From a virus (Duplodnaviria; Heunggongvirae; Uroviricota; Caudoviricetes), in the IMG/VR virus record IMGVR_UViG_2778261510_000006, positions 1 through 4,394 of that record: 4,394 bases of DNA, one strand, 5' to 3'. The notes below the pieces were generated by a model. The model ran no database searches, was not told where the DNA came from, and worked only from the letters and a program-made list of their open reading frames with translations. A program made the translations under genes and the position numbers. Below are positions 2-2,536 of this stretch, piece by piece; positions within the stretch are counted from its first letter, which is position 1; every line of letters begins with the position of its first letter.

Positions 2-2536
2 CGCATCGCCTGTAATGCGTACCTGACCACACAGCGCAAGGCGTGGGATGTGCTCAGTGATTTCTGCTCGGCGATGCGCTGTATGCCGGTATGGAGCGGG
101 CAGACGCTGACGTTCGTGCAGGACCGACCATCGGATAAGGTGTGGACCTATAACCGCAGTAATGTGGTGATGCCGGATGATGGCGCGCCGTTCCGCTACA
201 GCTTCAGCGCCCTGAAAGACCGCCATAATGCCGTTGAAGTGAACTGGATTGACCCGGATAACGGCCAGGAGACGGCAACAGAGCTTGTTGAGGACACGCA
301 GGCCATTGCCCGTTACGGTCGTAACGTCACGAAGATGGATGCCTTTGGCTGTACCAGCCGGGGGCAGGCACACCGCGCCGGGCTGTGGCTGATTAAAACA
401 GAACTGCTGGAAACGCAGACCGTGGATTTCAGCGTGGGCGCTGAAGGGCTTCGCCATGTACCTGGCGATGTTATTGAAATCTGCGATGATGACTATGCCG
501 GTATCAGCACCGGTGGGCGCGTGCTGGCGGTGAACAGCCAGACCCGGACGCTGACGCTCGACCGTGAAATCACGCTGCCATCCTCCGGTACCACGCTGAT
601 AAGCCTGGTTGACGGAACTGGCAATCCGGTCAGCGTGGAGGTCCAGTCCGTCATCGACGGCGTGAAGGTAAAAGTGAGCCGTGTTCCTGACGGCGTTGCT
701 GAATACAGCGTGTGGGGGCTGAAGCTGCCGACGCTGCGCCAGCGCCTGTTCCGCTGCGTGAGTATCCGTGAGAACGACGACGGCACGTATGCCATCACTG
801 CCGTGCAGCATGTACCGGAAAAAGAAGCCATCGTGGATAACGGGGCGCACTTTGACGGCGACCAGAGCGGCACGGTGAAGGGTGTCACGCCGCCAGCGGT
901 GCAGCACCTGACTGCCGAAGTCACCGCAGACAGCGGGGGATATCAGGTGCTGGCGCGCTGGGACACGCCGAAGGTGGTGAAGGGGGTGAGCTTTATGCTT
1001 CGCCTGACCGTGGCAGCGGACGACGGCAGTGAGCGGCTGGTCAGCACGGCCCGGACGACAGAAACCACATACCGCTTCACGCAACTGGCGCTGGGGAACT
1101 ACAGGCTGACAGTCCGGGCAGTAAATGCCCGGGGGCAGCAGGGAGACCCGGCATCGGTATCGTTCCGGATTGCCGCACCGGCAGCGCCGTCACTGATTGA
1201 GCTGACGCCGGGCTATTTTCAGATAACCGCCACGCCGCATCTTGCGGTTTATGATCCGACGGTACAGTTTGAGTTCTGGTTCTCGGAAAAGCGGATTGCG
1301 GATATCAGGCAGGTTGAAACCACAGCACGCTATCTTGGCACGGCGCTGTACTGGATAGCCGCCAGTATCAATATCAAACCGGGCCATAATTATTATTTTT
1401 ACGTTCGCAGTGTGAACACCGTTGGCAAATCGGCATTCGTGGAGGCTGTTGGTCAGCCGAGTGATGACGCATCCGGCTATCTGGATTTTTTCAAAGGCGA
1501 GATAGGGAAAACCCATCTGGCTCAGGAGCTGTGGACGCAGATTGATAACGGTCAGCTTGCGCCTGACCTGGCTGAAATCAGGACGTCCATTACGGATGTC
1601 AGCAATGAAATCACACAGACCGTCAATAAGAAACTGGAAGACCAGAGTGCAGCAATTCAGCAGATACAGCAGGTTCAGGTTGATACAAGTAATAACCTGA
1701 ACAGCATGTGGGCTGTGAAGCTGCAGCAGATGCAGGACGGACGCCTTTATATCGCGGGTATCGGTGCCGGTATTGAGAACACCCCCGACGGCATGCAGAG
1801 TCAGGTGCTGCTGGCGGCAGACAGGATTGCGATGATTAATCCTGCAAATGGCAACACAAAGCCGATGTTTGTTGGTCAGGGTGATCAGATATTCATGAAT
1901 GAAGTGTTCCTGAAATATCTGACGGCTCCCACCATTACCAGCGGTGGATATCCACCGGCATTTTCCCTGACACCTGACGGTCGGCTGACGGCGAGAAATG
2001 CGGATATCAGCGGTAACGTGAACGCGAACGCCGGAACGCTCAACAACGTCACGGTAAATGAGAACTGTACGATTAAGGGCATGCTGGAGGCGAACCAGGT
2101 CAGGGGGGACTTCGTTAAAGCGGTATCCAGACCATTCCCGAAAAGGGCTGGTACGTGGGGGAACACGGAAACACCCGACGGGACGGTTACCGTCACCATC
2201 AGCGATGATCATAACTTTGACCGTCAAATCATTATTCCGCCCATTATTTTTAACGGTGTGGCGTATGACAATCCGGGGAGCGGTAATAACCCGGGAGGTA
2301 CAAGGTACACGGGTTATGGTTTTGAAGTTCGCAAAAACGGTGTCTTAATCGCATCCAGAGAAACCAGAGGGGCAGTTCCCGGGAGTTACAGCGCGGTTAT
2401 TGATATGCCGAGTGGTGGTGGGAACGTCACCCTGGAGTTCAGGATTTTCCAGAAAGGCAATCAGGGTGCAGGTAACATCACAGACTGTACGGTGATAGTG
2501 ACCAAAAAAGCGGCTTCCGGTATCAGTATCCGTTGA
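2..2536 (+). CDS. J: Tail-tip host-specificity protein J (central tail fibre), 5'-partial; C-terminal ~845 codons present
   Basis: Seen in sequence: frame 2 is open from the window edge (codons 2-49 read [16 protein letters not shown] with no stop) through TGA at 2534-2536, so the GTG at 50 used by the ORF track is internal, not the start. Translation contains two tandem fibronectin-III-like segments (strand-F motifs [15 protein letters not shown] and [14 protein letters not shown]) and the conserved distal fibre block [19 protein letters not shown]...AFSLTPDG. Established knowledge: this architecture and length are those of lambda gpJ (~1130 aa), and J-lom-stf synteny supports it. Identity to lambda J not computed. 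Confidence 0.93.

Follow-up and report, generated by a model that had tools for sequence, protein, structure and literature searches.

Does the distal end of the J gene in this DNA encode a domain that binds a host receptor and, if so, which receptor would that be? The stretch analysed here, referred to as the window, comprises 4,394 nucleotides. An earlier note had picked out bases 2095-2536, the last ~147 codons of J, as a candidate receptor-binding segment and host-range determinant of unknown specificity. In our analysis the domain lies at 2081-2533 on the plus strand. It is very probably the C-terminal receptor-binding domain (RBD) of the J protein of a lambda-like siphovirus prophage, of the type found in phage 434, and by homology it would trigger DNA ejection upon binding OmpC.

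Gene J and its receptor-binding domain

The J reading frame is open from base 2 and ends in a TGA stop at 2534-2536. Its translation of 844 amino acids corresponds to residues 322-1165 of a J protein of 1165 residues, and in alignments with J of lambda, of 434 and of E. coli RM10740 it starts opposite their residue 322. The Pfam families PF13550 (Phage-tail_3), PF24421 (Ig_J), PF24489 (Ig_J_second), PF09327 (Phage_Tail_Tip) and PF12421 (Ig_GpJ_C) follow one another in this order. As a whole the window has 93-95% DNA identity to many lambdoid phages, the best phage relative being ev099 (94.7%), and 98.4% to the best complete E. coli genomes. The features referred to below are as follows.

2..2536, plus strand: the 3' 2.5 kb of J (tail tip attachment / host specificity protein), from the open reading frame, its translation and Pfam
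1802..2080, plus strand: conserved distal part of the central straight fibre, residues 601-693, ending in NCTIKG and the last block in common with lambda, from protein identity
1916..2552, plus strand: patch of raised divergence from ev099, running from the distal fibre through the RBD to 16 nt beyond the stop, likely an exchanged allele segment, from the distribution of mismatches
2081..2533, plus strand: RBD of the phage 434 type, residues 694-844, from Pfam, alignments, and AlphaFold2 with Foldseek
2267..2299, plus strand: Gly/Pro/Asn-rich hairpin, residues 756-766, from alignment
2459..2467, plus strand: second putative contact turn, NQG, residues 820-822, counterpart of phi330 A1015-P1020, from alignments
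2555-2588, plus strand: terminator-like hairpin and T-run between J and lom, from a consensus scan and the mEp460 annotation
2606..3205, plus strand: lom, an Ail/Lom outer-membrane beta-barrel protein of 199 amino acids, from PF06316 (E 7.5e-117) and its annotation in relatives

Sequence and modelled fold identify the distal segment as the domain of J that binds the receptor and sets host range, as the earlier note had supposed. PF12421 matches residues 709-843 (nt 2126-2530) with an E value of 3e-25 and a score of 89.3 bits against a cut-off of 26.2, covering profile positions 2-134 of 135. The stop of J is one codon past this match, which places the RBD at the extreme C-terminus, after the hub, two Ig/FNIII domains and the tail-tip fibre. 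When the last 244 residues were searched against the sequences in the PDB, the nearest solved proteins were the central fibres A8 gpJ713 (9wca/9wcb, E 1e-77) and lambda J (8xcj/8xck, E 3e-68), both matched over residues 1-243. A single-sequence AlphaFold2 model was unusable (pLDDT 39.6), and a model built with an alignment of 39 sequences reached a pLDDT of 77.6 overall and 80-94 in the tip, which is all-beta. The top Foldseek matches of this model were 8xck, 9wca, 8xcj and 9wcb, with E values of 1e-20 to the first three; these structures show the lambda fibre closed and open, and the A8 fibre both closed and in complex with OmpC of E. coli EDL933. Over the whole model the TM-score is no higher than about 0.5, since the fibre part is bent in the monomer prediction. 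The model and its structural matches therefore point to the Ig-like beta-sandwich fold of the solved lambda J tip.

The domain had been described as following a conserved distal fibre block, and the alignments bear this out. Residues of this block are 70-90% identical to lambda J, and its T-L-N-N columns are invariant across all RBD types (alignment A1). Past the NCTIKG motif identity to lambda falls to 23-53% per 30-residue block, and the divergent domain starts directly there, at M694 (nt 2081). The segment proposed earlier is thus correctly placed within the C-terminus of J, but it begins five codons past the true break with lambda. Both peptide strings that the earlier note had quoted from this region are present in the J translation.

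Other roles for these bases were considered and rejected. No diversity-generating retroelement template repeat of at least 25 nt was found for 2095-2536, apart from one chance 25-mer at 76%, and a retroelement target was dismissed on that ground. An Rfam search of the window gave no match, which disposes of an embedded RNA. The open reading frames at 2058-2348 (plus strand) and 2345-2686 (minus strand) overlap a frame that evolves with a dN/dS of 0.12, and were not accepted as overlapping genes.

Downstream of J, lom lies outside the RBD and is given as context only. A second terminator-like hairpin with a T-run is found just 3' of lom (3232-3263). Rho-independent terminators are annotated in phage mEp460 at places matching both hairpins, and terminator-like hairpins are no more numerous in the window than expected from shuffled sequence. 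The side tail fibre gene (stf) starts at 3270 on the plus strand; its N-terminal 375 codons, up to 4394, are in the window, which ends inside the gene. This part of the side fibre has a long Ala/Ser/Thr-rich low-complexity region. An Ala-rich antisense reading frame of 182 amino acids (3767-4315, minus strand) looks like a by-product of the composition of the side fibre, and hypothetical proteins are annotated on its strand in ev099.

Allele type and probable receptor

By its sequence the tip of J in the window is of the 434 allele type and not of the lambda type. Compared with J of phage 434 (UMO75362.1, the central tail fibre and h434 host-range allele), the RBD has 91.4% protein identity over 151 residues, ungapped, and 88.7% DNA identity; the tip of lambda h434 imm21 J gives the same two values. 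The 13 of 151 positions that differ from 434 include residue 822, W in 434 and G in the window. Two features of the 434 type, an insertion of 11 residues and the extended hairpin, also of 11 residues, are identical in the two proteins. The DNA identity to 434 together with a dS of 0.47 in the tip suggests that the window carries an old sister allele rather than a recent copy. The two J proteins also differ further up, where the window has another type of helical-shaft block (nt about 1485-1800), and in length, J of the window type having 1165 residues, that of 434 1137 and that of lambda 1132.

The comparison with lambda is of a different kind. Lambda J has the same architecture as J of the window (hub, two FNIII/Ig domains, helical shaft, beta-prism fibre and Ig-like tip; 8xcj and 8xck, PMC11101478), the same fold and about 95% protein identity over window residues 1-480. 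Its tip, bound to LamB in those structures, is only 36-39% identical to the RBD over the last 142-151 residues, with two indels, and is without six residues of the long hairpin. The earlier note could not match the tail to lambda J, and would have given up a receptor other than LamB had the identity been above 90%; the low value found, well short of the high identity to lambda J residues about 982-1132 that a lambda-type LamB-binding tip should have, leaves its suggestion standing. A tip of the A8/phi330 type was likewise rejected, as the RBD is 44% identical to the 9wca/9wcb chain over 142 residues, which indicates the same fold but a different allele family. Among database relatives covering at least 98% of the query there are two groups, one at 85-99% and the other at no more than 49% identity. 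The identities in between belong to fragments covering no more than 75% of the query and to one partial protein of 133 residues (66%). This suggests that J tips fall into discrete types and that the tip in the window belongs to the 434 type.

The receptor of phage 434 is stated directly to be OmpC (PMC12502783). The bioRxiv version of the base-editing paper of Brödel et al. likewise names OmpC as the 434 receptor, citing Hantke 1978, and replacing lambda J with the 434 fibre gene transferred OmpC binding (PMC11101478, citing Fuerst and Bingham 1978). Together with the 91.4% identity to 434 J, this literature allows the unknown specificity of the earlier note to be replaced by OmpC by homology, and its guess that the receptor may be other than LamB agrees with this. 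OmpC rather than LamB is thus the most likely specificity of the RBD, on the strength of 91% identity to a single characterised phage. Phages with close tip alleles were propagated on E. coli K-12. We found no receptor data for the PhiR/mEp phages with close alleles; the one paper found to include these phages concerns tape-measure proteins and ManYZ rather than J receptors. The tip peptides of the J chimeras 1A2 and A8, from which it might be seen whether 1A2 is of the 434 type, were not found in the supplements of the Nature 2024 base-editing paper.

Comparison of lambda h434 imm21 with 434 was also tried as a way to narrow down the host-range segment. It was set aside because the hybrid has the entire 434 block of J, lom, stf and tfa: the tip is not isolated, and J and the side fibres cannot be told apart from this hybrid alone. 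Side fibres are reported to bind OmpC in Ur-lambda (base-editing literature of Brödel et al.). Phage phi21, another lambdoid with a J protein, natively uses LamB and gained the use of OmpC and OmpF through four mutations in its receptor-binding protein, so that a handful of substitutions can be enough to alter porin use within the family.

OmpC is also bound by J tips of other types. For phi330 J its use was shown by knockout and complementation (PMC12502783), and for the A8 tip by delivery assays and a solved complex (9wcb, with OmpC of E. coli EDL933; the A8 gpJ chimera is also solved as 9wca). The A8 tip in the 9wca chain is 99% identical over 145 residues to the J tip of phi330, a natural EHEC phage, so that the solved A8-OmpC complex describes the phi330 tip too. 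These tips have the fold and the position of the hairpin in common with the window, but belong to an allele family of their own. In Salmonella, the lambda-like J of Gifsy-1 (PMC12312913), likened to the window by description only, has a divergent C-terminus that attaches irreversibly to OmpC and sets off DNA ejection; its tip is of another type, it belongs to another host, and it also binds BtuB and OmpX.

The loops that would meet the porin can be suggested from these comparisons. The Gly/Pro/Asn-rich tail noticed earlier includes the hairpin at residues 756-766, which is identical in 434, six residues longer than its lambda equivalent and aligned with hairpin E953-S962 of phi330. In an AlphaFold3 model of phi330 that hairpin enters the OmpC barrel, and A1015-P1020 makes extensive OmpC contacts (PMC12502783). 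The putative counterpart of the latter in the window is the NQG turn, whose last position, residue 822, is G, W or R among 434-type alleles. For lambda, OmpC loops are reported to clash with the open tip (PMC11101478). By analogy with the solved J fibres, three copies of J would form the tip of the central fibre, and their Ig-like domains would push the bottom loops, including the long hairpin, into the extracellular mouth of the trimeric porin. Binding would spread the base of the domain, a movement that would be relayed through the beta-prism fibre and the helical shaft to the tail tip, opening it and triggering DNA ejection. The triggering mechanism is presumably the same in lambda J; for J of the window both receptor and mechanism are inferred.

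Mosaic structure around the tip

The RBD is embedded in a mosaic gene. Compared with ev099, 78 of the 81 mismatches in 1801-2620 fall within 1916-2552, where divergence is about 12%, as against about 3% in the flanks. E. coli RM10740 has this patch at 100% identity but differs in other parts of J: per 100-nt window its identity is 99-100% over nt 1501-2600 and 93-98% over the first 1500 bases. The presence of the same tip allele in differing J backbones is as expected of an exchanged module. Compared with lambda, the divergent block extends over about nt 2100-3120 and takes in the tip and most of lom. The identity breakpoint anticipated by the earlier note is therefore present, but the exchanged patch is wider than the 2095-2536 it had proposed, whether measured against ev099 or against lambda.

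The lom gene itself has about 45-75% DNA identity to that of lambda over most of its length. Phages 434, ev099 and phi330 carry the lom type of the window (88-99% per 100-nt window), and lom of 434, which follows J as in the window, is 95-99% identical at the DNA level. Since phi330 combines this lom type with a different tip type, lom and tip types are not strictly linked. Phage Tritos and E. coli AHB5 have the closest tip alleles outside the group of exact matches; in both lom is absent and a side fibre gene directly follows J.

A further break was observed higher up in J. Residues about 495-600 (nt 1485-1800), which cover the helical shaft and the uppermost part of the fibre, have 7-23% protein identity to lambda and 434, account for most of the extra length of J over the J proteins of 434 and lambda, and have 96-100% DNA identity to ev099 and RM10740. 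This break is sharper than the one at the tip.

Base composition had been put forward as a sign of exchange, and this did not hold. The hand-counted values of the earlier note were accurate (exactly 60.0% GC at 181-240, 38.3% at 2201-2260 and 55.0% at 2261-2320), but the low GC is local. The domain at 2081-2536 has 51.5% GC and the 880 bases upstream of it (1201-2080) 51.4%, and we rejected GC composition as a marker of recombination here. J has a single GC step: near nt 1200 the content drops from some 63-67% to some 48-54% and stays low to the end of the gene. Because this step lies inside sequence that is 90-97% identical to lambda, it is a common property of J and marks no junction in the window.

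Selection, distribution and alternative readings

Ten 434-type alleles were compared over their last 244 codons, all ungapped. The dN/dS of the tip is about 0.12 across the ten, and the dS between the window and every other allele is 0.26-0.52. These values indicate an old allele lineage under purifying selection, which is neither decaying nor rapidly diversifying. Over this length the window has seven residues found in none of the other nine alleles, Y650, R710, P711, R715, R789, V792 and R814, all but the first within the domain, and these changes are mostly K-to-R or I-to-V. The 434-type alleles vary, among other sites, at 756/757 (base of the long hairpin), at 806/808 (PSGGGN turn) and at 822 (second contact turn). 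Some 434-type tip is present in about 2,100 of 5,426 complete E. coli genomes. The exact tip allele (100% DNA identity) was found in seven, six of them from pigs or a feral pig, and five of the seven are also among the relatives of the whole window, at 97.0-98.4% identity. The protein cluster to which the window belongs has 20 members, while other 434-type clusters have hundreds to 1,400.

One might speculate that 434-type tips are old, stably kept alleles, each matched to particular OmpC variants, so that a rare allele found mostly in pigs would be one half of a lock-and-key pair with its host population and not a neutral variant; we regard this as doubtful, and the association with pigs could reflect clonal descent. 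A related alternative is that the tip keeps its fold and still binds a porin, with a specificity that has shifted from that of 434, towards other OmpC variants, such as pig-associated E. coli might have, or with OmpF or PhoE added. The unique residues, the polymorphism of the 434 type at the counterparts of the phi330 contact hairpins (756/757 and 822), and the restriction of the exact allele to seven genomes and a small cluster could be read in this way, as could the finding that the A8 and 1A2 chimeras accept different natural OmpC variants. Yet the unique changes are conservative, the long hairpin is that of 434, the dN/dS gives no sign of diversifying selection, and common descent could underlie the association with pigs, so that we consider such a shift unlikely. 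That the tip is merely a diverged LamB-binding domain like that of lambda is hardly credible: fold and domain family are those of lambda, and phi21 uses LamB natively with a J protein, but the domain has little more than a third of its residues in common with lambda, carries two insertions in loop regions, and has as its closest characterised relative the OmpC phage 434.

The domain could also be a relic in a decaying prophage that no longer works in adsorption. In RM10740, which has the identical tip, the annotation lists the stf and tfa genes that follow as incomplete pseudogenes (7176-9774 of the compared RM10740 locus), suggesting that some carriers may be decaying prophages, and that prophage abuts potB; the window ends within stf and so covers its prophage only in part. 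Set against this, the J frame is open to a normal stop and equals that of 434 in length over the last 244 codons, amino acid changes have been held far below the synonymous divergence, and the allele is identical at the DNA level in genomes whose J genes differ elsewhere. Lambda PaPa, too, has no functional side fibres and still infects. We therefore think a relic very improbable, and retain an OmpC-binding RBD of the 434 type as the preferred reading.

A J RBD of the 434 type is a known kind of feature, and in public genomes the gene is already called host specificity protein J. Earlier work has established the domain family and its fold, the part it plays in host range and the pairing of 434 with OmpC, and the value of the result as a discovery is small. 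The gain is a modest, practical one, in that the receptor of this allele can be predicted to be OmpC. The window would thus add one more natural variant of the OmpC-targeting J tips, a kind that is used to retarget lambda-based delivery particles.
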